Source: Mesotaenium endlicherianum (lineage: Eukaryota). From it: a stretch of DNA of 64,000 nt. This document shows, piece by piece, positions 22,203-60,523 of the stretch. Each line of letters begins with the position of its first letter. Position 1 is the stretch's first letter. The DNA lies in the NCBI GenBank assembly GCA_009602735.1, contig WELA01002777.1:89680-153679 (forward strand), in the 5' to 3' direction. The notes beneath the pieces were generated by a model that saw only the letters and a program-made list of their open reading frames with translations, was not told the origin of the DNA and ran no database searches. The position numbers were made by a program, and so were the translations under genes.

Positions 22203-22370
22203 TGTAATGAATCAGTATATTATTTAGTTTTAGTAATCCAATTGAATGAAGAGTAAATTAAGTTCAGTCTGTTGAACTATAGTTGATTTTACGTTAAAAG
22301 ACTCAGCCGAGAGTAGCAGACTATAGTCTTCTTAGGTCAGCTTGCTGACACATTCTTTGACATCCAGCTG
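22203..22370 (+). mobile_element. Old truncated family-A LTR fragment
   Basis: Starts TGTAATGAATCAGTATATT and contains TTAGGTCAGCTTGCTGACACATTCTTTGACA, as in the LTR at 25280. Confidence 0.75.
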
Positions 22371-22860
22371 TCTATGTAGTGAAACAGATAGTTGAAGTAC
22401 TTAGTAAGATAAAATACTTTTTCTTATTCAAGACAAGGATATTTGAACACAAGCAGTAGCTTCTTGAGAGAGAGAGAGAGAGGTTTCTTGAAACTTAATA
22501 TATTTCTACTATTTGGCAAGTACAAGAGTGATTCTAGAATGCCTCTCTATGGTCTAGCTCTTGGTCATATATTTGCTACACAAAGGTGCATGTTGATGTG
22601 TTGGCACCCAACACATTTCAAAACTTGTCAACTCTTTCTATAATAATATACACATGGATCTTTTTGACCCAAAAATGGCATATTTGATTGTTGCCACATG
22701 GAGTTCTTGTAAGTCATTCTTCTAACTTTTGAAAATAACCTAGGACGGACATGAACCAAGTCACTAGAGAACCTATTTACACTTGAATCCACACAAAATT
22801 ACCCTTCAAATATTCAAAAACATTAAATTATGAAAAAGAACTAATCTAGTTGAACTTTTA

Positions 22861-25279
22861 TCGCTACATCACTCCCCGTCTCGACGCTTCAAGTTAGGTA
22901 TTCCTGACCCACTTGGCCAGCCTTATCCTTAATGATACGGGGAAATGTGTGCAATTAGGCTTAAATATTGCCACGCATTCAAAATTCATAGAGTCCACAA
23001 AACTGCTCCAAATCTTAGAAGTTGAGTGCCAGACGGAGCACATCAGAGACGCCTATAGGGCCACCAAATTTGAGAGCAAGCCAAAGTTAGAAGTGCTATC
23101 AAGAGCGCTCCTCTTACTTTGTGCAAAAGCTTCTGAAAGTCACAATTCATTCTATGCTTCCTCAAATGCTACAACACTATTCTCTAAATCAGCGCGTTGA
23201 CGTCCTCTACAACAGTCATGAGCTTCAGAGAATTCCAAGTTCAAGGGAGGTCACAATATCATGAAATACATTGTGCTCCAATAATGCCAGCAGCGTAACC
23301 TCCTTGTGCTCAGAGATTTTTATCTTCCTACCAGAGTTGTAAATTAAGCAAACTTAGTCTTTGAAGAAGTGTCTGATGAAGAACTATGGCTTGGTAAATT
23401 TTCAAGATATAACATTAAGACAGTGAATTGCAGTGGGAAACTGAAGGTTGCAATTCAGAAGTGTCAATGGAGAGATAAGTGGTTGATGTTACTTCTTGTG
23501 GGTCTTGGTTCTTGCAGGCTTCTTCCCAAAAGTATTGGAGGTCTTAAAGAAGAGTCTTGGGATAAGTCCAAGGTGCAGGTTGGCGGCGTGGAAACGCCTT
23601 AGCTTTCATTCAACTTTGTTAAGGTAGTGTGCCGCAACCCAGCTATTCTCTAACTCTAGATTTCCTTCCCCCTTGATCAAATATTGTTGTTGCCTAATGA
23701 AATTTCTCACATCCAATATGTTCTCAACTTCATACTCCAAACGATCATCCGCACTTGTTGGGGCCGGTGCGATTGTCACTCATCTTGGAAACGCGTTGTA
23801 CGGTTGTACATACGGCTTGCAGGAGGAAGCATGGAATAAAGGGTCAATGTGGGAGCTCTAGCTTGAAAGCAACAAGGTTGACTTGTGGAAAATCTTGAAT
23901 GGTCCCAAATACTTAGGAGAGAACTTGCTTTTGGCAAGCCTGTTGTTGAAGAAAATCTTATTGGATAATAGTATCATCTTGTCACCCACTTTGTATGAAA
24001 TTTTTTTTCTAGACCCATTTGCCATTCGTGCTTGAGCATCTTGCGCGTGATCTAGAGCTTTCTTGGCCGTTGCAAGGGCTTCATCCAATGTCTCCAAAAT
24101 ATTTGATGCGGCATGGGTGAAGGTGAATGGCGTCATGATTCCAGGTCATAGTTGGTTGAAATATTCAATGTTGTGCCCATTAAAAATGACTTGTGAATCT
24201 TGGATCTTTATTGGCGTCCAGGGAGTTGGAAGGTGTTGTCAAAAATGAGTCTTGCGAGTTGTGGTGCCGTAGCCTTAGTCTGAAGGGGATTACTAATTAA
24301 TCTTTGTGTAAGTCTTTCCACCACTGTCAAACTTGCATTATGGTTTTGAGGTGACACAGGGAGATCCACAATAAGGTCCAAAAAGATGTCCGTCCATTGC
24401 CTCTCTGGGATTGGTAGTGGTTAGAGGACTCCTCCCGCCTTTTGTAGTGATGGCTTGATTCTTTGGCATGTGTGACAACTCTTGCAATACTCCTTGAATT
24501 GCTTAGATATGTCTGGCCAGGAATGAATTCTTGCTAGCACGCAGGTGGTCTTTGACATTCCAAAGTATCTTTCAAGAGGGTTGTCATGTGCTTCATTTAG
24601 AAGTAAAAGCCGGAGGTTCAAGTCATTGGGAACAAATCTGTGGCCCATGTCTTGCCTCACCCAATAATCGTCTCCTTGCTTCGTGTATGGGTCTAAGGCG
24701 GCGTCTCTGTTCTTGTAATAAGGGTCTTCTTCATAGGCAGCTAAGAATTGTACCTCCAAATCCGTGTGCAAGGTTATTAGACCGAGTTTACTTGTAGTCT
24801 TGAAAGGGGCCCGGCTGAATTTGTCTTGCCAGGTTAGTACTGAATCTTGATGTTACATTTTTGCAGGTTTCTACTCCATCTTGCTTGTCTCCTTGAGAGA
24901 TACGGCTGCATCTGAAGGTGCTCCAATGCCTTGTGGTTTGTAATGACCAGCACCTTGCGTCCTTCAACGTAGCAAGGCCAAATCTTCAAGGCATGTATAA
25001 TTGCCAACGTTTCTCTTCCCGTGGTAATTTTGCTCGGTTGAATTCAACTTTGTTGACTCGTAGGCAATGGGTTGCAGTCCCTTGCCTTTGTCTTGGAGCA
25101 GGATTGCTTTATTGCGTAGGAAGATGCATTGATGATGTCGTGGAAGGGCCAATCTGGATTTGGAATCGAGAGTATGAGCACCAGGAATGTTGTTAATTTT
25201 TGCTTCAATGGTTGGAATGCTGCCTCCTCTTTCTTAGTCCAAACATATGGCTTGTCCTTCTTGAGCAAGTCAACGAGGG
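22861..25279 (-). pseudogene. Decayed chromoviral Ty3/gypsy pol 3' half (family C): RNase H, integrase zinc finger, chromodomain, PPT and LTR start
   Basis: Minus-strand fragments LLKKDKPYVW..EEAAF.LK, PIAYES.KLN..EQNY, EAHDNP...CKSCHTCQR, KFSPKYLGPF and EYEVENILDVRN...QYLIK. GAGACGGGGAGTGA is followed by TGTAGCG at 22868. Confidence 0.8.
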
Positions 25280-25998
25280 TGTAATGAATCAGTATATTGG
25301 TAGATATAAAATTCATTTAAACACAATAATTAAATAAGTTCGGCCTGCTGAACTTAAGTAAATATTGAGTCTGCTGGACTTTATTAAATATTCAATTTAA
25401 TGACTCAGCTGGGAGCAGCAGGCTGAAGTCAACTTAGGTCAGCTTGCTGACACATTCTTTGACAGCCAGCTGACTTCCGTACTCGGTAGCAGCGAACTGC
25501 CTCGATATGCATCTAAGTGTGGTATGCTAGATGAATGGCCAGATGACATCCTTAGGATGGATGGCGATTCGGGATGATGGGAGATGGCGGTGGATTTGGT
25601 TAACCGAGGTCCTACCAACGTAGTCAACTCCCGGGTAGGAGGTGCCATCGCACTGGCCGTAAAACAGTAAACTCATTCCATGTACATATGCTAGACATTG
25701 CTCTCGAGTTCAGCATTTGGAAACGAGGCCAAGTCTCTTGTATTGCTTACTGAGAGATATCTGAATCCAAGGCGAGAAGCCATTGGTATGCACTGTCTCC
25801 TAGCCTTGCTTATCTATGAGTTTACCGATTGCATTTTTTATGCTAGTTTACTTGCATTTGACTCGCGAGTATTGTTCACAGCTAGTGTGTTGTCCTTTGC
25901 TGTTTAATTAATTAACAGAAAGTACCATAAAGACTACTTGCTGATACAAAGATCTTCATTAATCGTTAATCGCCTATTTGATAAGTCGATTCATTTCA
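25280..25998 (+). mobile_element. Family-A copy A1, 5' LTR
   Basis: TG...CA ends, followed by a mutated PBS TGGAATCGGAGC at 26000-26011. Confidence 0.9.
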
Positions 25999-26032
25999 GT
26001 GGAATCGGAGCGGTTATCACAATCTTCTTTGT

Positions 26033-27511
26033 ATGGTAAGGACAAGGTCTCAAACTAGCAACTCCCGAGACATGGAGAACCAGGATAACGAGAATGTCAA
26101 AAACCAGGCGGAAAGCCATGTAGCGGGAACCCGTACCTATTCTGAAGCAATGGCAGATACTGCAGCTAGAGAGGCTGCAGATGAGGCAGCTGCTATTGTC
26201 GCAGTCGCAGCACAGCAGGCTGAGGAGGAGAGAGCCAGATTAGAAGTTGAACAATTAGCAAAGGCTGCCGAAGAGACAGAAAGGAGGGAAGGACAGCCAG
26301 CGGACGAGCGCACTGTCGAAGAACTTATGGCATCAAGGGCCAATGTTCTGAACCCACCTCCTGCTGTACAACTCAATGTGCCCCTAGGTCAAATTTGTGA
26401 CCGGCTGAATGCAGCAGGAATTGCTGCTGCAGGAGCAAGAGGGACTGTTGAGGACACTACTCAACGAGTGGATGCTACTGCTACTGCTGCATTTGCTAGA
26501 CTCCCACCTCAGAGTGTGGATTTGGAAGCATTGTTCGTGCAAATGCAATCGCAAATGGCGAGCATGTATCAATCCCAACAGGAGGACAAAAGAATCATAA
26601 TGTCTCTGCTGCGGGACAGACTCCAACTGGGTTCTCAAACCACTGGTGGTGGTGGCAGAGGGCCTAGTAAGTCCCAGCCGAAACCTCCCCAAGATTATGA
26701 TCCTGAGGGGAACAAAAAGTATTATCTGATCAAGTTTCTCGCTGATGTTGAGCAGTGGCTGGCGAACTACCCAAAACTGCAGGATTACGAGAAGGTCAGG
26801 CACACTTGTGCTCTACTGAAAGGCAGTGCAGCAGACTGGTGGCTGTATTGGAAAGGAGAGCGTAAGGCTCAACAACTCGGTGACCCTACTTGGGTAGAGT
26901 TTGTCGAGAAACTGCATGAGAAGTTTGATGTGATCAATCAGCAGGAGAAAGCTATCTATGCGATGATCTCCTTGACACTGAAGCAGACCACTTCAGTTGC
27001 TGAGTTTGCTCAAAAGTTTCAGGAGAAAATGATAAAGCAGCCAGACTTGCCAGAGCAGTATAGGATAGCATACTTCAGGCATGGCATAAAATCCGAAGTC
27101 TCTGTCCATTTTGCTGAAAAGAAGTATGAGAAACCGGCTGACTTGATCCAGGATGCTGTTGCCTGGGATCAGCAGCAGTTCAGTCACAAGCGCCAGAGTA
27201 ATGCTTTGGTATGTAAGGTTGTCAAAAAGCCCCACGGTTCCTACAATGCAATTGAAGGAGACCAAGCTGAGGACGATCAGGGTGATGAATATGAGTATGA
27301 GTATAATGCTATGCAGTCTAGAGGGAGAGATGGTTTCCCTCGAGGCGGTTATGGAAGAGGTGGTGGTAGGACTAAGCCGAGACCAGCCTCAGCAAAATCT
27401 ATCTGCTTCCATTGCCAGCAGACGGGTCACTTCAGAGAGCAGTGTCCAGTCCAGCACCTCCCAAAGGTCGAGAGAAAAGACCAGCCTTTAAAAGACAGCA
27501 ACAGTCAGTAA
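26033..27511 (+). CDS. gag: Family-A Gag (492 aa), copy A1
   Basis: Retrotrans_gag-like LKGSAADWW...W.EF...L..KF...L.Q..SV.EF and zinc knuckle CFHCQQTGHFREQC. Confidence 0.9.
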   Translation: MVRTRSQTSNSRDMENQDNENVKNQAESHVAGTRTYSEAMADTAAREAADEAAAIVAVAAQQAEEERARLEVEQLAKAAEETERREGQPADERTVEELMASRANVLNPPPAVQLNVPLGQICDRLNAAGIAAAGARGTVEDTTQRVDATATAAFARLPPQSVDLEALFVQMQSQMASMYQSQQEDKRIIMSLLRDRLQLGSQTTGGGGRGPSKSQPKPPQDYDPEGNKKYYLIKFLADVEQWLANYPKLQDYEKVRHTCALLKGSAADWWLYWKGERKAQQLGDPTWVEFVEKLHEKFDVINQQEKAIYAMISLTLKQTTSVAEFAQKFQEKMIKQPDLPEQYRIAYFRHGIKSEVSVHFAEKKYEKPADLIQDAVAWDQQQFSHKRQSNALVCKVVKKPHGSYNAIEGDQAEDDQGDEYEYEYNAMQSRGRDGFPRGGYGRGGGRTKPRPASAKSICFHCQQTGHFREQCPVQHLPKVERKDQPLKDSNSQ

Positions 27512-28316
27512 TTCAGTCTACTGACTGTGAGGATGCTGGAGATAGTGAGTCGTCACTAGCTGCCCTCGTAGCAGGTATAATGGGTCGTGTTGAACTGGAT
27601 TCACTATGCATGCCTGATTACCAAATAAAGCAGACCATCAGCAATATAAATCTCCAGCAAGTGCACACTCTCGATGATCGTGTTCCACCTGATGTCCAAC
27701 ATTTCTTTGCTAAGTCAGGAGAACAATGCGAAAGTCAGGAAAAGACAGTCCCCCCTATCCTACTGCATTGCATGATTGTAGGTAGGAAGGTGAGGGCATT
27801 TGTTGACGGAGGGGCGTCACATACTTTCATCCATAAGAACTTAGTTAAGCGGCTAAGACTGCCGATTGTCACCCAAGGGAATAGAAAGATAGTGCTTGGA
27901 GATGCCTCAAGTATCCCGGGAGGAATTATAACCAAGCTTATTGAGGTCCATTTACGTTCTGGCATTGCAATTCTAACTGAAACGCTTGCATTTGAGGTAC
28001 TCAACACTAGCTTTTATGATCTCGTGCTAGGAAGGTCCTGGCTTAACAGACATCAAGCTAAAGTGTGTTGGAGCAGAGGTACAGTTAAAGTGAGAGGAGC
28101 CAATGATGGGCAGACTAACTTGGCACCCACCAGTGCTCTTCCTCTTGTCCTGTATGGATGGCAAATGAAGGAAAAGAAGAAGCTTCCAGGAGGATGCAAA
28201 TTGCTGAATGCAATGGAGTTCATCGAAAGCTGGACCAGAAGGAAGACAGAATGTTCTGTCTGGTGCTAAAAGAGGTACCTCCTCAACCCAAAGAAGTGGT
28301 TGAGAAAAAGGTGAGC
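27487..28316 (+). pseudogene. pol: Family-A pol 5' fragment (aspartic protease), truncated by an inverted family-A insertion
   Basis: [12 protein letters not shown] and DLVLGRSWL. Similarity to the full-length copy stops abruptly at 28316. Confidence 0.85.
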
Positions 28317-29036
28317 TGAAATGAATCGACTTACCAAATAGGCGATTAACAATTAATGAAGATCTTTATATCAACAAGTAATCTTTATAGTAATTTCTGT
28401 TAACTGGTTAAACGGCAAAGGACAACACACTAGCAGTGAATAATACTCGTAAGTCAAATGCGAGTAAACTAGCATCAATAATGCAAATCAGTAAACTCAT
28501 ACATAAGCAAGGTTAGAAGACAGTGCATATCAATGGCTTCTCGCCTTGGATTCAGATCGCTCTCAGTAAGCTGTACAAGAGAGTTGGCCTCGTTTCTGAA
28601 TGTTGAACTCGAGAGCAATGCCTAGCATATGTACATGGAATGAGTTTACTGTTCAACGGTCAGTGCGATGGCACCTCCTACCCGGGAGTTAACCACGTTG
28701 GTAGGACCTCGGTTAACCAAATCCACCGCCATCTCCCATCATCCCGAATAGCCATCCATCATAGGGATGTCATCTGGCCATTCATCTAGCATATCGCACT
28801 TAGATGCATATCAAGGCAGTTCGCTGTTACCGAGTACGGAAGTCAGCTGGCTGTCAAAGAATGTGTCAGCAAACTGACTTATATGGACTTCAGCCTGCTG
28901 CTTCCGGCTGAGTCATTAAAAAGATAATTATGTAAAGTCCAGCAGACTAACTATAAACTAAAGTTCAGCAGGCTGAACTAAATTAACTATTATATTTAAA
29001 TGAATATTATATCTACTAATATATTGATTCATTACA
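28317..29036 (-). mobile_element. Family-A copy A2, 3' LTR (inverted)
   Basis: Reverse complement of the A LTR, with the PPT AAGTTGGAGGGAT adjacent at 29037-29049. Confidence 0.9.
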
Positions 29037-29149
29037 ATCCCTCCAACTTAACTTGTTGTCGCCTCGACAACATTAAACTGCAAAAGCCTTAAATAAAGGA
29101 ACTGACCCTGACCAGCCTCCCCTACTGACTGCCTTTTCAGCCTGTCACC

Positions 29150-29955
29150 TTAAGGGGTTGTTCCTGGGGCTTCAGGATCAGGAGACGGAGATCTGGACCT
29201 AGATCTGGACAGCCCTCTAGGTCTGTCAGCTGGCCTTCTAAAGAACCCTGTTTGCTCTAAAGTTGGACCTCGAGGAGAACAAAGGATGGTAGCCTGCTCT
29301 TCACCCACTTGGGTGTTGATCCCCACATAGACAGGCATTCCAGTAGGATGCTGAAATACATTGGCTAGAGGTACATGCCTCTGAGCGGAGGGGGGGGCCG
29401 GCATACCTCTGGCCCACCCGCGTGTCCCTCTTTTAGCACCCCTGTCCTCTGGGGATTTCTGCCTGTGTCTGCTGCCCAGTACAGTCAGATCAGCTTCTTC
29501 CCCTGCTTGGGCAGGTGGGCTGGGGGAGCGAGCGCGGGGTCCAGTTGTCGCCATAACGGGGATCACATTCCACACACCTGATCGTGGTTCTTTAGGAAGT
29601 GCCACTGCCTGTCCCTGGGTATCCTGAGTACCTGCTGCTGATGCTTCTCCTCTGCCTTGTTCTTCTTCCTCATCCTCCTCATCCTCCTCCTCGGAGAGAG
29701 TAGGGGTCTCGTCCACTAAGTCGTCCTGCTCCCTAGTAGACATGGAGTAGTCTACCGACCTCCCTTTCTTAGGGCGCGCTAGAGGTTGCTTGGCCTTCAG
29801 CCTGCTGATATCTATCCGGCCTGCATTCTTTGCCCATTTGACAAAGGCATGCTTTCCCTTAGAGAAGTACTCTCTTCCCCTCCTCCTATGTTCCTTGGTC
29901 TCTGCATTCATATTGCTCAGGCATCCATTCAGCCTGGGGTCCCAAGGGGCAATGT
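29150..29955 (-). pseudogene. C-terminal half of the family-A extra ORF (variant 1), copy A2
   Basis: IAPWDPRLNG...PEAPGTTP is nearly identical to 59608-60410. The 5' part is replaced by family-B LTR sequence. Confidence 0.9.
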
Positions 29956-31535
29956 TCATGACGAAAGCATCTGTACGCAACTCCGCGATCAATCGCGACT
30001 TTTTCGGAAATTCGCGAGAACGCGAAAACGCCCGTTTGGCGCGAAACGGGTTTTTGGAAACCGTCGAAAAGTCTCCAAACGGCCAACTGCGCGTTTCGAG
30101 CATTCGGCCGAATGGGACACGTCCCTTCGACCGTTTTCGTTGAACATGAACCAATGCCCTAGGTGGTGACTCGAAGCACTCCAGTGCCTCATGTTGTGCA
30201 GGTATAAATACCTGCAGAGTCATTGTGTGTGGAACTCTCACAAGCACACATTCTACGTTAGTTTTCACTTTTGCTCTTTCGAGTATTCGTCAATTTCCAC
30301 AAGTATACAGATTTTCCTTCCACTTGAATTAAATATTCCTTGAATACCGAGGAAAGATCCTCTCAAAAAGCAGAAACGTCACATTGGTATCGGAGCCGAT
30401 CTCGGTTTCTCTAAGGAATTTTATTTTTTTTAGTGAGTGGAATATATTTTGGGGCAATTTTTCGTATTGGGAAGGTCACCCATCCCAGTACTGCCCTGAC
30501 CCCCCGGCCGCTTATCGTGTTTCGACGGGAAAAATTTTTCTCTCTCTTCCGGCGCTATCTCGGCTTCCATGTGGAGGGCGACAATGGTGCCGCTGCGACT
30601 GCTGCCGCTGCTGTCGCCGCCGCTGCAGCTGCTCTTCCCGCTCCTGTCGTCACCAGTAGCGATGCTGGAGGATTGCCCGCCGAGCCAATCTCGCCGCGCA
30701 CTTTCCAGCAAACCATTTTACAACGCTTCACGGCCTTGACGACTGACAGTCAAACCATGACAATGGCACTTAGTACTTTGTCCGACGTCATTGGTCGTTC
30801 AAAAGACCATGTTAACCTTGCTGAAGCCACTCATACTGAGTTGGCCGACCTTGTCACTCGCTTTGTTGCTGCCATGGACACTCACCCTTCGATTGGTCCT
30901 TTTTAACAGGCTGCCCAAGGGATGCCGGGCCCATCAGGGATTGCAGGCGACAACGCCAACACGCCAATCTCGCCCATCATCCTTGGGCACCCGATATAAA
31001 TATACTTCAAAACGCATATATTTGTATGCCAGTGTTGAGCTTTGCTGACTTCTTGGAACTCGCGTGCATCCATGATACCATGTTCTTGCACTTTCAGCCG
31101 CATGATCCTAACCTTGCCAAGTGTTACGAACACTTATCTCGCTTACGGAAAACGCACAAGTGTCTTGCACCAATATATATTGCTGCATTCACACATGTTC
31201 GCGCGTACTTTGACCTGATTACTCGGTTTCGCGCAAGGACAGCAATGCAAAATGAGATTTTGGTATAGGACCTCCATATTTCCCACATTCCTCTCAAGGC
31301 GAGGACGTTGCTGGTGATGCATTATGCTTCTATGGGATTAAGTATGACATTTGAAACGAAAGTTTCAGGTAAATCGTGCTTTACAATCATTGATTCAGGC
31401 GCGTCAGTAAGCTTCATTAGTGCACGTTTTGCACAAGGGATGAAGTTGTTTCCAATACTCAAGGACGAGACTCTTCGCCTTGGCGATGGCTCGTTAACTT
31501 GCATTACTGGAATGCTTAAATTACCGCTCAGCGTG
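29956..31535 (+). mobile_element. Family-B copy B1 fragment: 3' part of the 5' LTR (to 30383), PBS (30385-30397), gag start, internal deletion, protease
   Basis: The LTR part aligns with 45667-46097. PBS TGGTATCGGAGCC. IIDSGASVSFIS protease motif homologous to 41330-41510. Confidence 0.8.
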
Positions 31536-32394
31536 TGAAATGAATCGACTTACCAAATAGGCAATTAACAATTCATAAAGATCTTTATATCAGCAAGTAA
31601 TCTTTATGGTATTTTCCGTTAACTGGTTAAACGGCAAAGGACAACACACTAGCAGGGAATAATACTCGTAAGTCAAATGCGAGTAAACTAGCATCAATAA
31701 TGCAATCAGTAAACTCATACATAAGCAAGGTTAGAAGACAGTGCGTATCAATGGCTTCTCGCCTTGGATTCAGATCTCTCTCAGTAAGCTGTACAAGAGA
31801 GTTGGCCTCGTTTCCGAATGCCGAACTCGAAAGCAATGCCTAGCATATGTACATGGAATGAGTTTACTGTTCAACGGCCAGTGCGATGGCACCGCCTACC
31901 CGGGAGTTAACCACGTTGGTAGGACCTCGGTTAACCAAATCCACCGCCATCTCCCATCATCCCGAATTGCCATCCATCATAGGGATGTCATCTGGCCATC
32001 TATCTAGCATACCACACTTAGATGCATATCGAGGCAATTCGTTGCTACCGAGTACGGAAGTCAGCTGGCTGTCAAAGAATGTGTCAGCAAGCTGACTTAA
32101 GCTGACTTCAGCCTGCTGCTTTCGGCTGAGTCATTAAACTGATATTAAATATAAAGTCCAGCAGACTGATTATTAACTAGAGTTCAGCAGGCTGAACTTA
32201 TTTAACTGTTAATATTATATCAACCAATATACTGATTCATTACAATCGCTCCAACTTAACATGTTGTCGCCTCGACAACACTGACACAGGGTACATAGGT
32301 TTCCCCAACTGAGAATACTGATCCCTCTCCCATCCAGCATGCTGTGCCCTTGGCCTTCCGCCCTTAGGAGGGAGATGCCCTTGGGGCCGTATGG

Positions 32395-34032
32395 TCAGGG
32401 GGAGTCAGTCCTCCTCCTGTCTTGGGGTCTTCTGAAGCCTGTCAGAGAGGGAGGTTCCGTGTAAGGACCCGGCGGAGAACGCAGTAATTGTGCTGTTTCG
32501 TCCTGCACGGTCTGAAACTGAATGGAGGCAGCCTTCTCCTGGGCATCCCTCAAATTGACTGGTACATATACCGGCATCCCAAAAGGATGTTGCATGACAT
32601 GAGCTAAGGGTACATGCCCTCTCTGCAAGGGAGATGCCGGCAGGCCTCTTGCTATTTCTCTAGCAGCCCTCCTGTCTGCCCTGTTTGACTGGGTCTCCGT
32701 GCCTGGAGATGGGCTCTGTCCTTTGGCAGTTCCCAACCAAGTGATATCCTCCTCTTCAGCGAGTTGCTGCAGGGCCAACCCCGTCTTTTCCCTTACAGGG
32801 GATGTGGCAGGTGTCAGGATCACGGCGGGGCTAGTGTCCTCCTCCTCGCCTTCCTCCTCGTCTTCCTCTGACTCCTCCTCCTCTCCGTCCCCGGGTTTCT
32901 CTGAGACTTCTGGGGTCTCCTCTGTCAGCTGCTCCAGCTCTTTCCGAGAAAAAGAATATCCCACTGACCTTCCCCTTTTGGGTGCTGGTGGGGGTTGCTG
33001 AGTCCGGACCGCATACAGGTCCTTTTCCCCCTGCTTGCTTGCCCATTTGGCATAAGCGTGCTTCCCTTTTGAGAATGACTCTCGGGCCCTGCTTCTGTCC
33101 CCCTGCATCTCTTGGCTCATGCAGTCTCTGACTCCATCCAATCTTGGGTCCCAAGCCGCAAAGTGAGGGGGCAATACTATGTTCCCCTTTAGGTCTGTCA
33201 GGAATTCCTCATCCGTCGCCCTGTCATTCTGCTGATCCCTCATGTTGATGGTCATCCACCGCCAATTGGTGGGCTTTTGGAAGAAGGCAGGCTCTGTCGT
33301 TTTAAGAGTACAAGGGTACCAGTGCCCTGCAAAGTCTAGCTGACTGGTTTCCCTGGCCAAGAACTCCCAGCTTCTCCTCTCCACCTCATTATACATGGCC
33401 TTGAACCGGTTATGGGGTGTAGAGTCCTTAAAGCTGTCCGCGTCCATGGGGATCATCCTGATGACCCTATCTTCCCCCCAGATACCAGGAATCGATACAG
33501 TCCGTGCTTCGTTCACCTGGGCCATTGCCTTGGCCTCTCTGACCGTATATCCTACCATCCTGGCGTGATCGTGGTAGAGGAGGAGCCCTGTGCCGACCTC
33601 TATATACTTGTCAAAATTTTCGGATGTCTCCCCTTCCCTCTGAAGGATTTCCTTCTGCGACTCACTGCGACTTCTTTGTGCATACTTGAAGGCCTCCTCC
33701 AGTAGATCAAAGCCCTTGCCCAGCACTGTGTAGCGGTAGCTGCTGATTCTCCTCTGTTCTTCTTCTTCGGCCTGTTGCTTCCGCTTCTCCTCAGCTTGCC
33801 TCTCCTCCTCTGCTTTCTTGGCCTCCTCTGCAGCTTTTCTGTCCATTTCTTCCTGCCTCAGTCTGGCCTGTTCCTCCTCCTCCTTCTTCTTCTGTGCCTC
33901 CCGCTGTTGTTGGAGTCGTTGTGATTCCCGAGCGGAGATGGAGGATGATTCGATGTCTCCACGGAATTGCAAGTATTTTGCAAGTGCCTCTTCCGCCCTT
34001 CTCTTCCTCTTGAGTTCCGACTTTTGAGTCAT
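32395..34032 (-). CDS. Family-A extra 3' ORF, variant 2 (545 aa from MTQKSEL), function unknown
   Basis: Uninterrupted ORF that aligns by eye end to end with 58734-60410 (YRYTV, MVGYT, DSFKD, YNEVERRSWE.LARE, WRWMT, LPPH.A.WDPRL, FSKGKHA, GHVPLA, QHP.GMPVYV). Confidence 0.85.
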   Translation of the reverse strand: MTQKSELKRKRRAEEALAKYLQFRGDIESSSISARESQRLQQQREAQKKKEEEEQARLRQEEMDRKAAEEAKKAEEERQAEEKRKQQAEEEEQRRISSYRYTVLGKGFDLLEEAFKYAQRSRSESQKEILQREGETSENFDKYIEVGTGLLLYHDHARMVGYTVREAKAMAQVNEARTVSIPGIWGEDRVIRMIPMDADSFKDSTPHNRFKAMYNEVERRSWEFLARETSQLDFAGHWYPCTLKTTEPAFFQKPTNWRWMTINMRDQQNDRATDEEFLTDLKGNIVLPPHFAAWDPRLDGVRDCMSQEMQGDRSRARESFSKGKHAYAKWASKQGEKDLYAVRTQQPPPAPKRGRSVGYSFSRKELEQLTEETPEVSEKPGDGEEEESEEDEEEGEEEDTSPAVILTPATSPVREKTGLALQQLAEEEDITWLGTAKGQSPSPGTETQSNRADRRAAREIARGLPASPLQRGHVPLAHVMQHPFGMPVYVPVNLRDAQEKAASIQFQTVQDETAQLLRSPPGPYTEPPSLTGFRRPQDRRRTDSP

Positions 34033-34380
34033 CCTGCTCAATCATAAACACAATGCAGTTAGTGAAGTCATGATATTTTGCCGCTACTGAGTGCCCTTGA
34101 TGAAGAGGAACGCGATCGGGAGAGGTCCTAGTGTGAAATACCTGGTGTGAGTGAATATACGGGAAAATCGAGTTAGAGAGAAAGTGAGTGAGAGCGCAGG
34201 TTGAGTGTGTTATATGGTTATCAGAGATTTTCCGGTTGATCCCAAAACATAATACCACTCCCTCCAACTTAATTTTAAAGGTGGGCTGCCTGTCACAACT
34301 GTCACTATTTGTCACATCCCCCTCCAACTTACATGGAGACAGGACCTCCTGTCACCTTCCCAGGTCTGCTGAAGGGACAG

Positions 34381-37300
34381 TTAGGGCGGTGCCCCAGCCG
34401 CCCGAAGGTGGAACCGTTTCAACGCCCCTTTGGCATTGGTCAGCTGGTCTTTAAACTCCCAAGTGTCCCCAGAGGCATCGTAACCCTTCCATCGGATGAG
34501 GTACTTCATGACATATTTAGACGATCGACGGACCGAGCGAGCGTCTAAAATCTCATCGACCTCATATTCCTCAGGGTCGCCGTCCCGGACAGCGGGGACC
34601 GGTCCCGGTTGGACAGGGAACCGACCTGTGAACAGTGTATCACCTTTGATGTATGGTTCCAGGAAGGAGACATTAAAGACCGGGTGATCCTTGTAGTCCG
34701 CTGACATGTTCAGTTTGTAAGCATTCTGACTGACACGACGCACTACCGAATATGGACCGACCCACACAGGGCCAAGCTTTTTCTTGACCACACCAGGGAG
34801 GTACAGGTGCTGAGAATGCAATTTGACTGAATCGCCCTTAGAAAATGTCAGCTCCCAACGGTGTTGATTAGCGTATTTTTGTTGGTTTTCTTGGGCTTTG
34901 TGCAGGTTTTGTTGGACTTCTGACAGGGTGTCAGCAAACTCCTGAGTTAACTGGAGGGAGACCGGGTTGTCAATCCCTTCAGGGTGAGTTAAAGATTCCC
35001 CTAGCACATCTAGAGGAGACTTAGGGACTCTACCCAGGCTGAGTTCAAAAGGAGTCTTGCCCGTTGACGCGTGCACCGCACTGTTGACCGCAAACTGAAT
35101 TTGAGGCAACAGGTCATCCCAATTATCTTGTTTTTGGTTAATATATGCTCTCAGCACCTCCTGCAGAACTTGGTTAGTTTGTTCAGTCTGCCCATCAGTG
35201 TGAGGGTGGTTTGTTGTGCTGAGCAGCTGTTTGACTCCCATTAACCCCATTAAAGCTCTCCAGAACTTAGCGGTAAATTTTGAGTCTCGGTCTGAGATGA
35301 TATTAGAGGGTAGTCCATGTTGGCATACTACATGGTTGTAGAACTGTCTTGCTGTTTCGAGTGCAATTACTTTGACAGTTGTGGGGATGAAAATGACCAT
35401 TTTTGTCAGTTTATCCACGACTACCAGTATCGAATCATGCCCATTAGCAGTTCGTGGAAGTGTGACCACCCATTAATATAGTTTCCCAGCGTCCCGCTGG
35501 GATGGGCAGCGGTTGCAAGAGACCTCCCGGTGGTGTGTGCCTAGACTTATTTCATTGACACAGATCACAGGACTTCACATATTTCAAGACCTCTCGTGGC
35601 AACCCCTCCCAATGATATTGTCTCGCCAGTTTGCCAACAGTTTTGGCCTGCCCCAAATGCCCACCCAATAAACTGTCATGTGGTTGACTCAATAAAAGGG
35701 ACCTTATTTCCAAGTTATTAGGAATGACCAGCTTCAACCTGCCTGAAGTGGTTTCAGTCACCCAGACCTCTCCCTTAAGTTTATGCCCGAGTGCAGTAGC
35801 ACGACACACACCAGTAGTAGGGCTGGGCTTAAATGTTGGGTCAGAAAGGTAGGCTTTCCTAAGTTGTTCAAGGAAGGACTGTTTCACCTTTAGTGAAGTG
35901 AGTGCACACAGGACTTTATCTACAGCCTGATGACTAAAGTTCCTCTCTTGCAAGTCAGGTCTTCTAGAGAGTGCATCAGCGAGATTCAATCTGGACTTGA
36001 AACTGCTCCAGCATCTGGCTCCAGCGGTTCTCCCTCCTCGACAGCTTGGACTTCTTCTGAAAGTGGGTCAGAGCTAGATGATCTGTAATCACCTTAAAGG
36101 CTTTACCATGTAAGTATGCTCTCCACTGTTTGAGCACATGAATGATAGCTAGCAGCTCTTTATCATGCACTGAGTAATTAATCTCCGCTGGATTAAATTT
36201 CATAGACTCATACAACACAGGATGCCACTCCTGCCGTACCTTACCATCCTTTGTGGTTTTGTCAGCAGGCTGCAACAAAATAGCACCCATGGCAAAATCA
36301 GAGGCATCAGTAACCACCTGCACCGGTTTGCTGGGGTCATACACGGCTAGCACTGGGGCAGAACAAAGGGCATCTTTAAGGGTCTGGAAGGCAGCCTGCT
36401 GCTCCCCCCCCCACATATACCCTATGTCTTTTTTAGTAAAGTCAGTCAGTTTACTGGCCTTCGTGGAATAATTCTCAATAAATCTCCTATAGTAGTTAGC
36501 CAACCCGAGGAAGGATCTAACTTCAGAGACAGACTGTGGTACTGGCCAGTCCCTTACGGTGTGCACTTTCTTAGGGTCCACACTGATGCCCTCTTTGCTG
36601 ACAACGTGGCCTAAGAATTCGATATTTTCCTTAAAGAAATCACACTTGCTCATTTTAGCATATAACTGACTTCTTCGCAGAATGTCCATGACCGTCTTTA
36701 AGTGTTCAGCGTGCTGAGTCTCATCTTTAGAGAAAATTAAAATATCATCCAGGAAAACTTGCACAAATTTATCCAAATAAGGCCTGAAAATGTCATTCAT
36801 AGCACCCATGAAGGTTGCGGGAGCATTAGTCAGTCCGAATGGCATCACGTTGAACTCATAGTGTTCATAACGTGTGCGGAAGGCAGTCTTGTGTTCATCC
36901 CCCTCAGCAATTCTGATTGGTGATAACCACTCTTGAGATCTATCTTACTGAACACCTTAGCACCAGACAGGATATCAAGCAAGTCCTCAATTTTGGGTAA
37001 AGCATACTTGTTCTTTACCGTAATTCTGTTCAGGGCCCTGTAATCCACACACATCCGCATACTGCCATCCTTTTTCTTAACAAATAGGACGGGTGCGCCG
37101 TAAGGTGATTTACTGGGAAAAATATAACCATTTTCCTCAAGCTCGCAATCTGTTTTTTCCACTCCTCGCTCTCCACATAAGACAAGCCATACGTGCGTTG
37201 CCAGGGTGGCTAACTACCAGGTAATAAATCAATCCTATGATCTACTTCTTGTTTAAGGGGTAGTCCTGGAGGCATATTAAATACATCCGTGTACTGAGCA

Positions 37301-38162
37301 TCAATTTTTGCGGCAGTAGGGTGCTCCGGAGGGCTTACCTTTATCTCCACCACTTCTTCAGGTTGAGGAGGTACCTCTCTTAGCAGCAGACAGAATATTC
37401 TGTCTTCATTCTGGTTCCAGCTTTTGACGAACTCCATTGCATTCAGCAACTTGCATCCTTCTGGAAGCCTCTTCTTTTCCTTCATTTGCCATCCAAACAA
37501 GACAAGAGGAAGAGCACTGGTGGGTGCCAAGTCAGTCTGCCCATCACTGGCTCCTCTCACTTTAACTATACCTCTGCTCCATCACACTTCAGCTTGATGT
37601 CTATTAAGCCAGGACCTGCCTAGCACGAGATCATAAAAGCCAGTGTTGAGTTCCTCAAATGTAAGCGTTTCAGTTAGAACTACAATGCCAGAACCTAATT
37701 GGACCTCAATAGGCTTGGTTATAACTCCTCCGGGATACTTGAGGCATCTCCAAGGAATATTTTTCTATTCCTTAGGATGATAGTAGGCAGCCTTAGCCGC
37801 TTAACTAAGTCCTTGTGGATAAAAGTATGTGACGCCCCTCCGTCAACAAATGCCCTCACCTTCCTACCTGCAATCATGCAATGCAATAGGATAGGGGGGA
37901 CTGTCTTTTCCTGACTTTCGCATTGTTCTCCTGACGTAGCAAAGAATTGTTGGACATCAGGTGGAACAAGAGCATCCAGAGTGTGCACTCTCTAGACGTC
38001 TATATTGCTGATGATCTCCTTTATCTGGTTGTCAAGCATGCATAGTGAATCTAGTTCAGCAGGACCCATAATACCTGCTACGAGGGCAGCTAGTGACGAC
38101 TCACTATCTCTAGCATCCTCACGATCAGTAAACTGGATTACTGACTGTTGCTGTCTTTTAAA
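34381..38162 (-). pseudogene. pol: Family-A pol (PR-RT-RH-INT-chromodomain) with multiple stops and frameshifts, copy A3
   Basis: [31 protein letters not shown] and YEVDEILD...YLIRWKGY spread over several broken ORFs. Confidence 0.9.
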
Positions 38163-39629
38163 GGCTGGTCTTTCCTCTCAACTTTTGGGAGGTGCTTGTC
38201 TGGACACTGCTCTCTGAAGTAATCTGGCTGCCGGCAATGAAAGCAAATCGATTTTGCTGAGGCTGGTCTCGGCTTAGTCCTACCACCACCCCTTCCATAG
38301 CCACCTCGAGAGGAACCATCTCTACCTCTAGACTGGATAGCATTGTACTCATACTCATATTCATCGCCCTGATTATCCTCAGCCTGGTCTCCTTCAATTG
38401 CATTGTAGGAACCGTGGGGCTTTTTGACAATCTTAGACACCAAAGCATTATTCTGGCGCTTGTGATTGAACTGCTGCTGATCCCAGGCGTCAGCATCTTG
38501 GATCAAGTCAGCCAGTTTCTCATACTTCTTCTCAGCGAAATGACCAGAGACCTCGGATTTCAAGCCATACCTGAAGTATGCTATCCTATACCGTTCTGGC
38601 AAATCAGGCTGTTTCATCATGTTCTCCTAGAACTTTTGAGCAAACTCAGCAACTGAAGTGGTCTGCTTCAGTGTCAGGGAGATCATCGCATAGATAGCTT
38701 TCTCTTGCTGGTTGATGACATCAAACTTCTCATGCAACTTCTCGACAAACTCTCCCCACGTAGGGTCACCAAGTTGCCGAGCCTTACGCTCTCCTTTTCA
38801 GTAAAGCCACCAGTCTGCGGCACTACCTTTTAGTAGCGCACCGGTGTGCCTGACCTTCTCGTAATCTTGCAGTTCTGGGTAGTTCTCCAGCCACTGCTTA
38901 ACATCCGCGAGAAACTTGATCAGGTAATATTTTCTGTTTCCCTCAAGATCANAGACCATATAGGATCCCGCAGTAGAGACATTATGATTCTTTTGTCCTC
39001 CTGTTTGGACTGATACATGGTCGCCATTTGCGATTGCATTTGAACGAACAATGCTCCCAAGTCTACACTCTGGGGTGGTAGATTAGCAAATGCAGCAGCA
39101 GCATTGGCATCTACTCGTTGAGTAGTGTCCTCAACAATCCCTCTTGCTCCTGCAGCAGCAATTCCTGCCGCATTCAGCCGGTCACGAATTTGACCTAGGG
39201 GCATTTTGAGTTGTACAGCAGGAGGTGGGTTCAGAACATTGGCCCTTGATGCCATAAGTTCTTCAACAGTGCGCTCGTCAGCTGGCTGTCTTTCCCTCCT
39301 TTCTGTATCTTCAGCGGCCTTTGCTATGTGTTCAGCTTCTAATCTGGCTCTCTCCTCCTCAGCTTGCTGTGCTGCGACTGCGGCAATAGCGGCTGCCTCA
39401 TCTGCAGCCTCTTTAGCTGCAGTATCTGCCACTGCTTCAGAATCGGTGTGTCAGTCAGTTGGTCAGTCAGTCGGTCAGGGTTTATAGCTGGCATGCGTGC
39501 GGTCCCCACACTTGCAATTGCACCAGCCGGCAAAAATTCCATCCCGCCCTCTTTCCCCCCCTTCGCCCCTCCTTCTCTCTTCCCTCCCCCCTCTTGCCTG
39601 CTATCCTGGCACAATCACTTAGTGACCAT

Positions 39630-39698
<69 letters not shown>

Positions 39699-39740
39699 NN
39701 NNNNNNNNNNNNNNNNNNNNNNNNNNNNNNNNNNNNNNNN

Positions 39741-39821
<81 letters not shown>

Positions 39822-39979
39822 GTATGCTAGCCTGTGTCTGACTGGCGGAGAGCCTGCCGTTTCCCGCCAACCCCCGAACGCTATCCCGCTACATGGCTTT
39901 CCGCCTGGTTTTCGACACTCTCATTATCCTGGTTCTTCATGTCTTGGGAGTTGCTAGTTTGAGACCTTGTCCTTACCAT
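38138..39979 (-). pseudogene. gag: Family-A gag disrupted by a stop, a deletion and a ~440-bp insertion, copy A3
   Basis: Pieces nearly identical to 53203-54681. Confidence 0.9.
39640..39815. repeat. (CT)n microsatellite spanning a short N-gap, inside the insertion in A3 gag
   Basis: Directly visible. Confidence 0.9.
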
Positions 39980-40837
39980 ACAAAGAAGACTGTGATAAGT
40001 GCTCCGATACCACTGAAATGAATCGACTTACCAAATAGGCGATTAACAATTAATAACGATCTTTATATCAGCAAGTAATCTTTATGGTATTTTTTGTTAA
40101 CTGGTTTAACGGCAAAGGACAACACACTAGCAGTATATAATATTCGTAAGTCAAATGCGAGGAAACTAGCATCAATAATGCAAATCAGTAAACTCATACA
40201 TAAGCAAGGTTAGAAGACAGTGCGCATCAATAGCTTCTCGCCTTGGATTCAGATCTCTCTCAGTATGCTGTACAAGAGAGTTGGCCTCGTTTCCGAATGC
40301 CAAACTCGAGAGCAATGCCTAGCATATGTACATGGAATGAGTTAACTGTTCAACGGCCTGTGCGATGGCACCGCCTACCCGGGAGTTAACCACGTTGGTA
40401 GGACCTCGGTTAACCAAATCCACCGCCATCTCCCATCATCCCGAATCGCCATCCATCATAGGGATGTCATCTGGCCATTCATCTAGCATACCACACTTAG
40501 ATGCATATCGAGGCAGTTCGCTGCTACCGAGTACGGAAGTCAGCTGGCTGTCAAAGAATGTGTCAGCAAGCTGACTTAAGGTGACCTCAGCCTGCTACTT
40601 CCGGCCAAGTCATTAAACTGATATTAAGTATAAAGTCGAGCAGACTGATAGTTAACTAGAGTTCAGCAGGCTAAATTTATTTGACTATATTATTTAAATG
40701 AATATTATATTGACCAGTATACTGATTCATTACACGGAGGGTCTATGTTTTGCATGCGGGAAGTCTGGGCATACATTCTCGACATGCCCTTCTGCAAAGG
40801 GGCCGAGATATGATCCCAAGGGGAAAGGCAAGGGGCC

Positions 40838-43800
40838 TTTAAAAGAGTAGCTCAGGAGCAAGTTGCAAAGCCTCCTTCTGAGCGGGTCACAACACTCCTT
40901 AGTGAGCAGGAAATTCTAGGTGCTTGTGCGCATGCACCCAAGGTTCTTGTTCTCTCAGGCATACCCGATATAAATATATTTCGTTCCAAATATATTGGTA
41001 TGCAAGTGTTGAGCTTTGCCGAGTTCTTGGAGCTCGAGTGCATCCATGCTTGCATTTTCTTGCACTTCCAACCGCATGACCCTAACGTTGAACGGTGTTA
41101 CGCACACTTATCTCGTTTACGGAAGATGCGCAAGTGTTTTGCACCAAATTATATTGCTGCATTTACACACAAACGCGAGAAGTCTGAGCCAATCACTCAG
41201 TTTCCCGCCGGTTTGGCAATGCAAAATGGCATTTTGGTAAAGAAACTCTATATTTCCCATTTTCCTCTCAAGGCGAGGACATTGCTCGTGATGCATAATG
41301 CTTCTTTGGCTTTAAGTATGACGTTTGAGATTCACATCTCGGGCCGGTCATGTCTCACTATCATTGATTCAGGAGCATCAAATAGCTTCATTAGTGCCCG
41401 ATTGGCGCTCGAAATGAAGTTGGTTCCCAGAAAGAAGGTTGAACAACTACGCCTTGGCGATGGTTCTTTAGCCAACATTACAGGAACAATCAAGTTACCG
41501 CTTAAGGTGCAGTCATACCATGGCAACAAAAAGTTCTACGTTACGAACTTGCCCGATGGTGTTGATGCAATTTTGGGTAACACTTCGCTTACGCAAACAA
41601 GGGCATTGTTGGACTACGGTCAACATACATGCATTGTTCGCAAGGGGGGTCACAAGATAACTCTTCGCCCCCTTGAGCCCGACATGGAGTTAGAAAGTCC
41701 TAAGAGGACTCTCCTTTTCTCCGTTAAGCAAGCTCGGCGCTTGGCAAAGCGAGGTCAAAATGTTTTCTACGGATTACTGAGCCAAGCACCCTCAGAGGTT
41801 TCCACTAAGTTCTTTACGGAAGAACCGATGTTAGAAATCCCTGATCATGTGGCGACACTCACAACGGAACTATCTGCTCTTTTGCAGAAGTATAAGTCTG
41901 TGTTCCCACCTGATATACCAGCCGGGTTACCACCTAATCGGGGTATAGGGCATACAATCCCTCTTGTTCCTGATGCTCAACCGACTTGGCGACCGATCTA
42001 TCGTTTAAGCCCGTTGGAGCTCCAGGAAATGAAGGACCAAATAATCGAGTTGCTAGCCAAAGGATGGATTGAGCCGAGCTCGTCTCCATTCGAGGCGCCC
42101 ATACTCTTTGTTCAAAAGAAAGATGGGACCCTACGTATGTGCATTGATTATCGTGCGTTGAACAATATTACGGTCAAGAACCGGTATTCGTACCTCGCAT
42201 TGATGATTTGTTTGATTCGTTGCAAGGAGCATGCGTGTTCTCCTCACTTGATCTAGCCCAAGGCTACCATCAAATTCGAATCACACCAGAGGATGTTCCC
42301 AAAACAGCGTTTCGGACGTTTATTGGTCACTTCCAATACAAAGCCCTTAGTTTTGGACTTACCAATGCACCGGCGACATTCCAAAGCACAATAAATGACG
42401 TGTTTAGACCGTACTTGGGTAAGTTCGTCCAGGTTTACCTCGACGATATCCTTGTCTATTCAAAGTCAGAGGCCGAGCACTACAAGCACCTCGAGTTGGT
42501 GTTGCAAATCCTCCGTGAGCAACAGCTGTACGCTAAGCTCAAAAAGTGTTCCTTTCTAAAGGATGAACTGTTGTACCTCGGACATATAGTGGGTTCGAAA
42601 GGGGTGCGCCCTGACCCAGCCAAGATTGCGTGTGTCGCGGATTGGCCAGTCCCGAAAGATGTACATACCGTCCGTTCATTCCTTGGGTTTGCAAATTACT
42701 TTCGTAAGTTTATGCAAGGCTATTCAGTGATGGCAGCGCCACTCACTGCTCTGACCAGGAAAGATGTGCCGTTCATTTGGAATGAAACCACACAACTTGC
42801 GTTTGAGCGCATTTCGTATGTCCTCACTCATGCGCCAGTTCTCTCATTAGCCAATCCCGACTTGCCTTACGAGGTAGTGGCGGATGCGTCTGGTGTTGGG
42901 ACCGGGGCTATCCTGTTGCAGGCAGGGAAGCCTATCAGTTTCGAGAGTCGAAAGCTGACCCCTGCCGAACAAAATTACTCTACAACAGAGCAGGAGCTCT
43001 GGGCAGTCATACATGCTTTAAAAATTTGGCGATGTTATTTGGAAGGGTGCAAGGGTTTGACAGTGGTTACGGATCACTGCCCAAATACCTTCTTTCAAAT
43101 TCAGCCAACGCTGTCAAGACGACAGACGAGATGGTCTAAGTTCTTACAACGATTCCGCTTTAACTGGGCGTATCGCCCTGGTCGCAACAATGTTGCGGAC
43201 CCTCTAAGTCGAATTCCTCAGCGTTACTTGCTGCTGGGGACCGTTGCGGGCGTTAAAGAACGAAATGGTCAGGTTTCGAGGGCGGCCACCCTTGATTCTG
43301 CTGTACCCCCCCAGACGTCCGACGTACAACCGCCTGGTGACGCGGGCACACCCGATTTGGATAGCGCGCATAACTCGAAATCACTTGACCTGCATCAACT
43401 GTTTCACGAGGGCTATCTCAAAGATCCGTTTTTCCTAGATCTCCAGGGTACTGGCTTGAACGGTGTAGCCGTAACGATGGACAGTATGGACAAAAGGAAT
43501 AACCGCTCAGACTATACATTTGAGCACGGTTTTTGGTGGCACAATGGGCGCATTGTGGTCTTAGAAGGCCGAGTAAGAAATGTGCTACTACGGGAAGCGC
43601 ATGACTCTCCTTACTCGGGCCATTATGGTATTACCAAAACCAGTCAAGCGTTGCACCGAGGGTACACGTGGCCGTCCCTCAAAGTTGATGTTGCTGAGTA
43701 CATCACCAACTGTGCGACTTGTCAGAGGAACAAGCCGAGCAATGCGTTGCCGGGTGGGAAGTTGCATCCCTTAGAACTTGCGGGTGCCCCGTGGGAAAGC

Positions 43801-44960
43801 ATAAGCCTTGACTTTGTCGTTGAATTGCCTACCACCAAAAGGGGACACAATGGGGTGTTAACGATCGTCGATCGTTTCACTAAGATGGTGCACTTTGTGC
43901 CCACTAAACCATCGCTTGATGCCATCGAGACCGCTCGTCTCTTTATGGATCACGTGTTCAAGTTACATGGTATGCCGAAAGAGATCATAAGTGATCGTGA
44001 TAGTAGATTTACGAGTCACTTCTGGCAGGAAGTTTGCTCGCATTTGGCACGAAACTTAAGATGTCGACCAGCTTCCATCCTCAGACCGATAGCCAGACAG
44101 AACAAATGAACCGCGTTCTTCAGCAATTCCTTAGGCATTATGTGAATCCTCGCCATGACAACTGGAATACCCTCCTTTCAGTTGCCGAGTTCGCCGTAAA
44201 TAATGCTTATTAGGAATCTGTTAAGGAAACTCCGTTTTTCCTTAACCATGGGAGACACCCGCACACTCCGCTGACGGTTGTCGTTTCCCGTCAGCTGGGG
44301 GTGCCTAACATGAGAGTACCAAGTGCACGCCAATTTGTCCACTCTCTTCAAGAGGTGCACAAACAAGCAAAGTTGGCTTTAGCAGCCGCCCGGGACCGGC
44401 AGAAAAAGTTTGCTGACACGCACAGGAAAGAGTTGAGTTTTGAGGTCGGCAATAAAGTACTTTTGCAGACTAAAAACTTGAAACTCCAGCACCCAGGAAA
44501 GCGCAAGCTTCTGCCTCGCTGGGTAGGCCCTTTTATCGTTAGCGCAAAGGTTGGACCTCTTGCCTACCGACTGGATTTGCCTAAATCTATGGGGCGGAGG
44601 CATCCTGTGTTCCATGTCAGTTTACTGAAGCTGTTCAGGTCTGATGGCCGCTATCAGCCACAAGCACCGGAATTGGAACTCGAACAAGATGACATAGCCT
44701 GGGATGTAGAGGAGGTCATTGGGCACCGCTACACCCGTCATAAGCCTCCACGCGTGGAACTTTTGATTAAGTGGCTCGACTACGATTCCAGTTGGAATTC
44801 GTATGAACCGCAGGACGAAATCCTACATAATTGTAGCGACCTGGTTCAACAGGATTGGTTACGATGGGTTGACGCTCAAAGGCTCTGCGCTAAGGCAAGT
44901 GTGCTACCAGGCGCTCTTTGTACACCAAAGAACAAACGCAAAAGGGACGCGGCCAAGTAA
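40838..44960 (+). pseudogene. pol: Family-B pol (PR, RT, RNase H, integrase, chromodomain) with frameshifts and a stop
   Basis: IIDSGAS, YLDD, ADAS, HDSPYSGH...C.TCQR, ISDRD, WDVEEVIGHR...LIKWLDY. Broken at about 42190, 44045 and 44210. Confidence 0.9.
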
Positions 44961-45099
44961 TCGCTCTTTTTCGTCACTGTTCGCTGCAATCGCCCTTCGC
45001 TTGGACTGTGTTTCACGCTCGCTACGGGCAAGTATTAACACAGAATACTTAAAAGACAATGCTTAACGCGGACGTTAAGTTCTTTTAAGGGGGGAGGAG

Positions 45100-53168: not shown

Positions 53169-53202
53169 GTGGTATCGGAGCAGTTATCACAGTCTTCTTT
53201 GT

Positions 53203-54681: not shown

Positions 54682-54698
54682 TCCAGTCTACTGACTGT
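54657..54698 (+). promoter_or_regulatory. Predicted -1 ribosomal frameshift signal
   Basis: T_TTA_AAA in the gag frame, 7-nt spacer, perfect 10-bp stem ACAGTCAGTA/TACTGACTGT. pol is open in the -1 frame. Confidence 0.8.
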
Positions 54699-60410: not shown

Positions 60411-60523
60411 GGTGACAGGCTGAAAAGATAGTCAGTAAGGGAGGCTGGTCAGGGTCAGTTTCTTTATTTAAAGCTTTTGCAGTTTAATGTTGTCGAGGCG
60501 ACAACAAGTTAAGTTGGAGGGAT

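Follow-up and report, generated by a model that had tools for sequence, protein, structure and literature searches.

An extra open reading frame (ORF) that one member of a retrotransposon family carries between pol and its 3′ LTR was probably put onto the family backbone a single time, through recombination with a distant relative; both this form of the ORF (alpha) and the form found on its relatives (beta) would then have multiplied. We find the two forms on one backbone, joined to it in the case of alpha by a real junction, and several copies of each form. Coordinates refer to the window, the whole stretch of 64,000 nt that was analysed.

Family A and its setting

The second half of the window is a nest of LTR retrotransposons, to which family A contributes five pieces. 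These, with some of their parts, are:

A1, 25280-28316: 5′ part of a family-A element
A2, 28316-29955, minus strand: 3′ part of a family-A element, a truncated copy
A3, 31536-40734, minus strand: Ty3/gypsy chromovirus with decayed gag-pol
A3 3′ LTR, 31536-32244, minus strand: 5.8% different from the A3 5′ LTR (40014-40734)
A3 integrase C-terminal half, SH3-like domain and chromodomain, 34381-35472, minus strand: domains scored on A4
A5, 47373-51466: 3′ part of a family-A element, a diverged copy
A5 pol tail, 47373-48770, plus strand: upstream of the internal tract at 48812 and of the beta ORF
A4, 52450-61267, plus strand: LTRs differing by 2.2%, flanked by the target-site duplication TATCT, with a single stop in RT

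In the frames of A4, Pfam recognizes gag, protease, RT, RNase H, integrase, an SH3-like domain and a chromodomain, in gypsy order, with the chromodomain at the integrase C-terminus scoring above the cut-off (PF00385, E = 1e-8). The A3 domains match those of A4 at 81-96%, and A3 and A4 belong to one Ty3/gypsy chromovirus family. TG...CA LTRs, a primer site, which we take to fit tRNA-Met, a polypurine tract and the 5-base target duplication are all present in A4. A3 is in poorer condition: over 1650 codons its gag-pol is broken by 7 stops and 6 frameshifting indels, its gag holds a 430-base insertion (39448-39877) in which (CT)n flanks an N gap on either side, and a matching target-site duplication was looked for and is absent. 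The insertion could conceal a scaffold join, which would account for the absent duplication, and because of that absence and the N gap A3 may itself be a chimera upstream.

Over the full RH-IN query, no listed pol relative exceeds 43% identity, and partial matches reach 49%. Green-algal elements come first among the named matches listed, which also include plant, fungal and other elements. In an integrase tree of A4 with 39 of the 120 matches listed (40 were chosen and 1 dropped for length), for which Chlamyvir was a candidate clade, A4 falls outside the seed-plant group; its neighbours are unsupported (0.48-0.76), and the tree, which contained no labelled references, does not fix the clade. 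The window also holds a second chromovirus, family B (40814-46097 and 29954-31535), in two subfamilies ~77-80% alike; it has a tract ~125 bases after pol and an LTR at 45101-46097, and the extra ORF is absent from it.

A divergent interval separating pol from the 3′ LTR

In 200-column windows along gag-pol and the LTR bodies, the likeness of A3 to A4 is 89-99%, and synonymous divergence (dS) between the two is 0.155 in gag, 0.132 in PR-RT and 0.147 in RH-IN, in keeping with the first-pass annotation, which had called their pol proteins almost identical and their LTRs one family. The likeness drops to 42-62% at 34234-32286 (A3 coordinates) and recovers at the 3′ LTR. We looked in A3 for a donor-like pol tail and found none, A3 and A4 being alike right up to the tract. 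The parts of this interval, with their counterparts in the other copies, are:

First internal polypurine tract, 34319-34331, minus strand: 50 bases past the pol stop; the alpha and beta (A4) UTRs part here
TGACA-repeat block, 34272-34318, minus strand: common to A3 and A5, mostly missing in A4
Second internal polypurine tract copy, 34262-34271, minus strand: a weaker copy in A5 at the matching place, none in A4
Predicted intron in the alpha 5′ UTR, 34034-34141, minus strand: 108 bases; with a donor, a branch-like CTAAC motif and a CAG that ends one base ahead of the ATG
Alpha extra ORF, 32395-34032, minus strand: 545 aa, open, sense to A3
Alpha 3′ UTR, 32281-32394, minus strand: unalignable to the beta 3′ UTRs
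Hairpin, 32262-32280, minus strand: kept in A2, A3, A4 and A5; 3′ edge of the divergent interval
Terminal polypurine tract of A3, 32245-32258, minus strand
Predicted intron in the beta 5′ UTR of A4, 58630-58732, plus strand: 103 bases
Beta extra ORF in A4, 58734-60410, plus strand: open, 558 aa when read from the ATG that follows the predicted acceptor
Beta ORF in A5, 49150-50828, plus strand: 5 stops and 1 frameshift; downstream of the A5 internal tract
Beta 3′ part in A2, 29150-29955, minus strand: pS 0.04 to A4

Both ORFs are in sense, have at least 250 codons and lie after pol and before the 3′ LTR, the features by which aORF-3S or eORF-3′F genes are recognized, and an extra ORF is found in all four family-A copies of the window that keep their 3′ part. 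Alpha and beta are plainly homologous by BLASTP (230 of 569 residues identical, E = 9e-130) and 48% identical in a global alignment of 509 codons; over 273 core codons the identity is 49%, close to the half of core residues that had been judged by eye. Their silent sites are saturated, with pS of 0.79 and an identity of 0.31 at fourfold sites (n = 95), and dN is 0.41-0.46.

That the ORF has a real coding function, as had been argued from residue conservation, is supported both by the alpha/beta identities at the three codon positions (0.61, 0.68 and 0.39) and by selection within beta. Between A4 and A5, beta has a dN/dS of 0.12 overall and of 0.07-0.21 in each of five regions, as low as or lower than that of the integrase (0.17); beta is under purifying selection. 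The diversifying pressure that had also been suggested finds no support, since no beta region exceeds 0.21 and the ORF and integrase dN are equal in this pair (0.064 and 0.067), while with two sequences compared a few positively selected beta sites may exist. Alpha is open across its 545 codons, over which about 4 stops or frameshifts are expected at the A3 gag-pol decay rate; other copies have a one-base indel near the alpha stop, and the C-terminal length of alpha may therefore vary.

The edges of the interval are marked by polypurine tracts. The window has 8 occurrences of the core TAAGTTGGAG, where 0.14 would be expected, each of them at a family-A internal or terminal tract. Further tract-core matches at 14650 and 15318 were rejected as unrelated inverted repeats; the pair concerned (14605-14723 and 15244-15363) comprises 120 bases at 91% identity and is unrelated to family A. 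A search of metagenomes for the hairpin pattern returned 4 loci, none related. The family-A internal tract sits where family B has its only tract, a position that might mark the first tract as the former 3′ tract of an ancestor, behind which the start of an LTR has eroded.

The flanking UTRs were said not to align, and this holds for alpha against beta of A4, where the alignment scores were reached by 48 of 500 shuffles (5′) and 121 of 500 (3′). It fails for the 5′ UTRs of A3 and A5, in which ~60 more bases can be aligned beyond 34319, through the TGACA block to 34262-34271, with a score that none of 1000 shuffles reached. A4 and A5 are both of the beta type, and their 3′ UTRs are likewise unalignable (128 of 500 shuffles); unalignable UTRs are therefore by themselves no evidence of a swap, and UTRs turn over on their own, even among beta copies. 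The proposed break at the internal tract and resumption at the hairpin thus hold at the hairpin edge and, against A4, at 34319, but not against A5: the 5′ boundary of the divergent interval depends on the comparator.

To examine the junction between alpha and pol, we compared 33950-34550 at 82% likeness with contigs of sequencing runs; part of the window stretch was found in 20 of the 24 listed runs, from 8 studies. Two contigs, X6 record 18 (542 nt, 33970-34482) and X7 record 24 (401 nt, 33950-34361), each span the ORF start, UTR, tract and pol side. They come from two studies, neither of them that of the best-matching run, and show 35 and 14 letter differences, respectively, from A3, with a 24-base gap in both; because of these differences and the common gap, the contigs must stem from other alpha copies. 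A misassembled pol-ORF junction in A3, which the first-pass annotation had named as one outcome that would undo its reading, is therefore refuted for the 5′ junction. For the 3′ junction (32245-32290), a bridging piece is absent among the pieces listed. Loose ends at 34319 (25 pieces in X1 and one in X6) read as beta UTR. A low UTR depth at 90% likeness had suggested that the alpha junction is rare, a possibility we discarded when the 5′ UTR filled in at 82%, where it is covered except for a 24-base stretch absent from other copies.

The alpha bins are all covered in X1, by many variant contigs, with summed contig depths (in millions, and not a measure of copy number) of 0.10-0.26 for alpha, 0.36-0.80 for pol and 1.2-1.6 for the LTR. 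At 34332 in X7, alpha accounts for 25 of a summed contig depth of 129.5, again not copy number. Alpha looks like a sizeable minority among copies, and both types are multi-copy. Other X6 contigs, with a summed depth of ~140, match only 33984-34081 (the predicted acceptor and ORF start) and diverge on both sides; their loose ORF-side letters are alpha-like in frame, and they possibly represent a third ORF form.

Conflicting histories and their explanations

The history of the ORF conflicts with that of pol. Across 34319-35767, 126 sites differ in A5 alone, 46 in A3 alone and 39 in A4 alone, and integrase dS is 0.155 for A3/A4, 0.33 for A3/A5 and 0.37 for A4/A5; A5 is thus the integrase outlier, yet it carries beta, as does A2. 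Between A4 and A5 the two parts of the element give distances that agree, with pS of 0.31 (0.25-0.36) in IN and 0.37 (0.32-0.43) in the ORF, intervals that overlap, and pN of 0.065 and 0.061, respectively, from which it follows that beta, unlike alpha, moved together with the backbone. Given the equal A4/A5 dN of ORF and integrase, the alpha/beta split would lie ~6-7 times deeper than that of A4 and A5. Rate variation is unable to span the gap from a dS of 0.15 to saturation, in a comparison of three copies only that takes its root from the clock. Similar synonymous divergence in pol and ORF, the other result expected to tell against an exchange, is absent (0.13-0.16 against saturation). The recombinational origin proposed at first for the ORF difference is hence sustained by the contrast between a pol dS of ~0.15 and a saturated ORF, by the conflict posed by A5 and by the bridged junction.

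The order of events can be reconstructed in part. Beta, which A4 and A5 share, is quite probably the older resident, with alpha entering after these two had split, and we hold with good confidence that the donor of alpha was some 6-7 times more distant than A5, as the alpha/beta dN of 0.41-0.46 suggests. The window contains no donor family: the remaining chromoviruses there have 25-45% identity in RH-IN, and family B leaves no space for an extra ORF. For want of a donor there, the direction and route of transfer are judged from three copies and a rough clock. We see about an even chance that the crossovers took place in, or were later trimmed to, the sole shared stretches, namely the tract and TGACA block on one side and the hairpin and tract on the other, during reverse transcription of co-packaged RNAs. 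One exchange suffices for the data. It is improbable that the duplicated tract works as an exchange module, through plus-strand priming at the internal tract, by which at least three diverged specificity alleles (for example, anti-silencing ones) move repeatedly.

A small chance attaches to the view that no outside donor was involved and that alpha, beta and perhaps a third form are ancient balanced alleles in long coexistence, with frequent template switching homogenising gag-pol-LTR and the ORF interval too diverged for recombination inside it. Both types are common in several samples, as this view would have it (alpha making up the 25 of 129.5 at 34332 in X7), and the pol tail next to alpha comes in two haplotypes: at 34367, 34374, 34375 and 34387, X6 record 18 shares the letters of A4/A5, whereas A3 and X6 record 22 do not. 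The further X6 contigs that match only 33984-34081, at a depth of ~140, point the same way. However, contig depth is not copy number, the A4/A5 letters are perhaps ancestral, so that two haplotypes fail to prove repeated exchange, and backbones at a dS of 0.33-0.37, as A5 shows, have not been homogenised.

Loss of a paralog is still less likely. The ancestor would then have had alpha and beta as a tandem pair, both with tract copies on either side, and a deletion from repeat to repeat would have left one of them. The tract does form a direct repeat around the ORF, and A3 and A5 have one more internal copy of it; but alpha would have had to be lost independently in A4 and A5, and none of the four ORF-bearing copies of the window holds both ORFs together. 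We regard an assembly artefact, or a one-off dead chimera within the nested repeat cluster, as very unlikely. Such an origin would fit the missing target duplication, the N gap in gag and the 7 stops and 6 frameshifting indels of A3, as well as the fact that none of the 8 X1 pieces listed of 2300 bridges the junction (nor does any of the 8 X5 pieces listed of 34); against it, the X6 and X7 contigs bridge the 5′ junction from other copies, and the N gap lies more than 5 kb from it. Fast in-place divergence under host conflict, without recombination, is scarcely credible: PMC6317226 describes the extra ORFs of plant LTR elements as highly heterogeneous and possibly fast-evolving, and the first 370 codons of beta have an A4/A5 pS of 0.42 against 0.31 in IN, with overlapping intervals, but synonymous saturation beside a pol dS of 0.15 is beyond what protein selection can cause, and beta dN/dS stays at 0.07-0.21 in all five regions. 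The pS of those first 370 codons (A5 49150-50260) also exceeds the 0.29 of the rest of beta, again with overlapping intervals, and may reflect a second, smaller exchange.

The extra-ORF protein and related systems

The alpha protein has a basic N-terminus, a charged helical stretch, a core at about residues 98-372 and an acidic low-complexity tail with conserved motifs; KRKR-like basic N-termini are found in both alpha and beta, and the conserved core comprises ~270 residues. Neither ORF has a transmembrane segment, the top 19-residue hydropathy values being 0.80 and 0.73. Homology searches with the alpha core gave 0 matches at 299-954 aa and, by core alignment, 0 matches among longer proteins. 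Two matches among 1.84 billion representatives were rejected because each sums over the repeat units of an unrelated repeat protein, with probabilities of 4% and 9%. The Atlas returned nothing for the alpha core and a best value of 0.77 for beta, which is chance level; Pfam had nothing near the cut-off for the extra ORF, NCBIfam, PHROGs and PDB were blank, and a single Rfam match is due to chance. Scans for related loci confirmed none of 102 metagenome and none of 89 viral stretches. The AlphaFold model of the core has a mean pLDDT of 36 and an unusable fold.

A tentative reading of this layout is that the extra ORF encodes a nuclear helper protein rather than an envelope; neither homologs nor a fold lend support to a nuclear role. 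At a guess, the protein might act in the nucleus to aid production or export of the element RNA, or to counter silencing. Nuclear accessory proteins of LTR elements include CERV of Cer1 (PMC10309623) and the antisense-encoded gene23 of Grande (described in PMC7264820). Both are orphan proteins like that of the extra ORF, and theirs come from a separate or spliced message; we found no sequence or fold link to either, and the extra ORF is in sense, unlike gene23.

Sense extra ORFs located behind pol occur commonly, and their role is unexplained (PMC7264820); the Retand survey (PMC11963269) also covers them, and PMC6317226 reads their heterogeneity as fast evolution or separate capture. As far as the available descriptions go, known extra ORFs (aORF-3S or eORF-3′F) resemble those of family A in position, orientation, occurrence in most copies, heterogeneity and lack of outside matches, and splicing is reported for Bagy2. 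The same descriptions tie them to the OTA and SIRE lineages, whereas ours sit in a chromodomain-bearing element, have no transmembrane stretch, have a predicted short 5′-UTR intron, are bracketed by tracts and come in two distant forms on one backbone.

Recombination among co-packaged LTR-element RNAs is described as well (PMC12992720, PMC4079200). The grass centromeric CR elements (PMC4079200), Drosophila rover (PMC12992720) and sugar-beet non-autonomous elements (PMC13570524) are mosaics that amplified after recombination, as family A appears to be, and template switching between co-packaged RNAs is the route proposed for such recombinant subfamilies. In those accounts, the exchanges concern blocks of LTR, gag or pol, or else mutations in env among close variants, and the env tree of the rover set mirrored those of pol and gag (PMC12992720); in family A the accessory gene has a different history, and it alone would have been exchanged, between partners with saturated silent sites. 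We did not find a published case in which a distant accessory ORF lying between tract copies was exchanged in a chromovirus, in a search whose coverage is thin for subscription papers. Extra ORFs and recombinant LTR elements are both known, while the exchange of distant orphan alleles in a chromovirus appears, on that search, to be new. It would add a third route to extra-ORF heterogeneity, in which a slowly evolving gene under purifying selection looks hypervariable through exchange of distant alleles. A near-identical backbone with two natural, amplified alleles also offers a ready comparison for the function of the ORF and its independence of gag-pol.

We lean towards a separate message for the ORF, for which we predict an internal promoter that follows the first tract as well as a 5′-UTR intron. 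All three 5′ UTRs, including that of A5 beta with a predicted intron of 102 bases, have the donor, CTAAC and CAG pattern, which arose in 5, 2 and 11 of 20000 shuffles and was defined after inspection; from the predicted acceptor, the likely start of beta is 58734. No spliced joint was listed in two polyA runs, sampled at 6% and 12% of each run's reads, of which 180 and 241 aligned, at 0-7x over alpha, and there are no RNA runs among the matches listed for the window stretch. Over the pol tail (34358-35021), polyA first mates in X23 and X24 lie mostly on the minus strand, at up to 10x in X23; if the library is of a common stranded type, this suggests antisense transcripts from some copy of the family.

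A family-A-like LTR fragment at 22203-22373 (~78% identity) could derive from a distant family-A relative, 23588-25277 is a decayed third chromovirus pol, 25-37% identical to A4, and a 463-codon Gln-rich ORF at 18930-20321 is likely an exon of a host gene.
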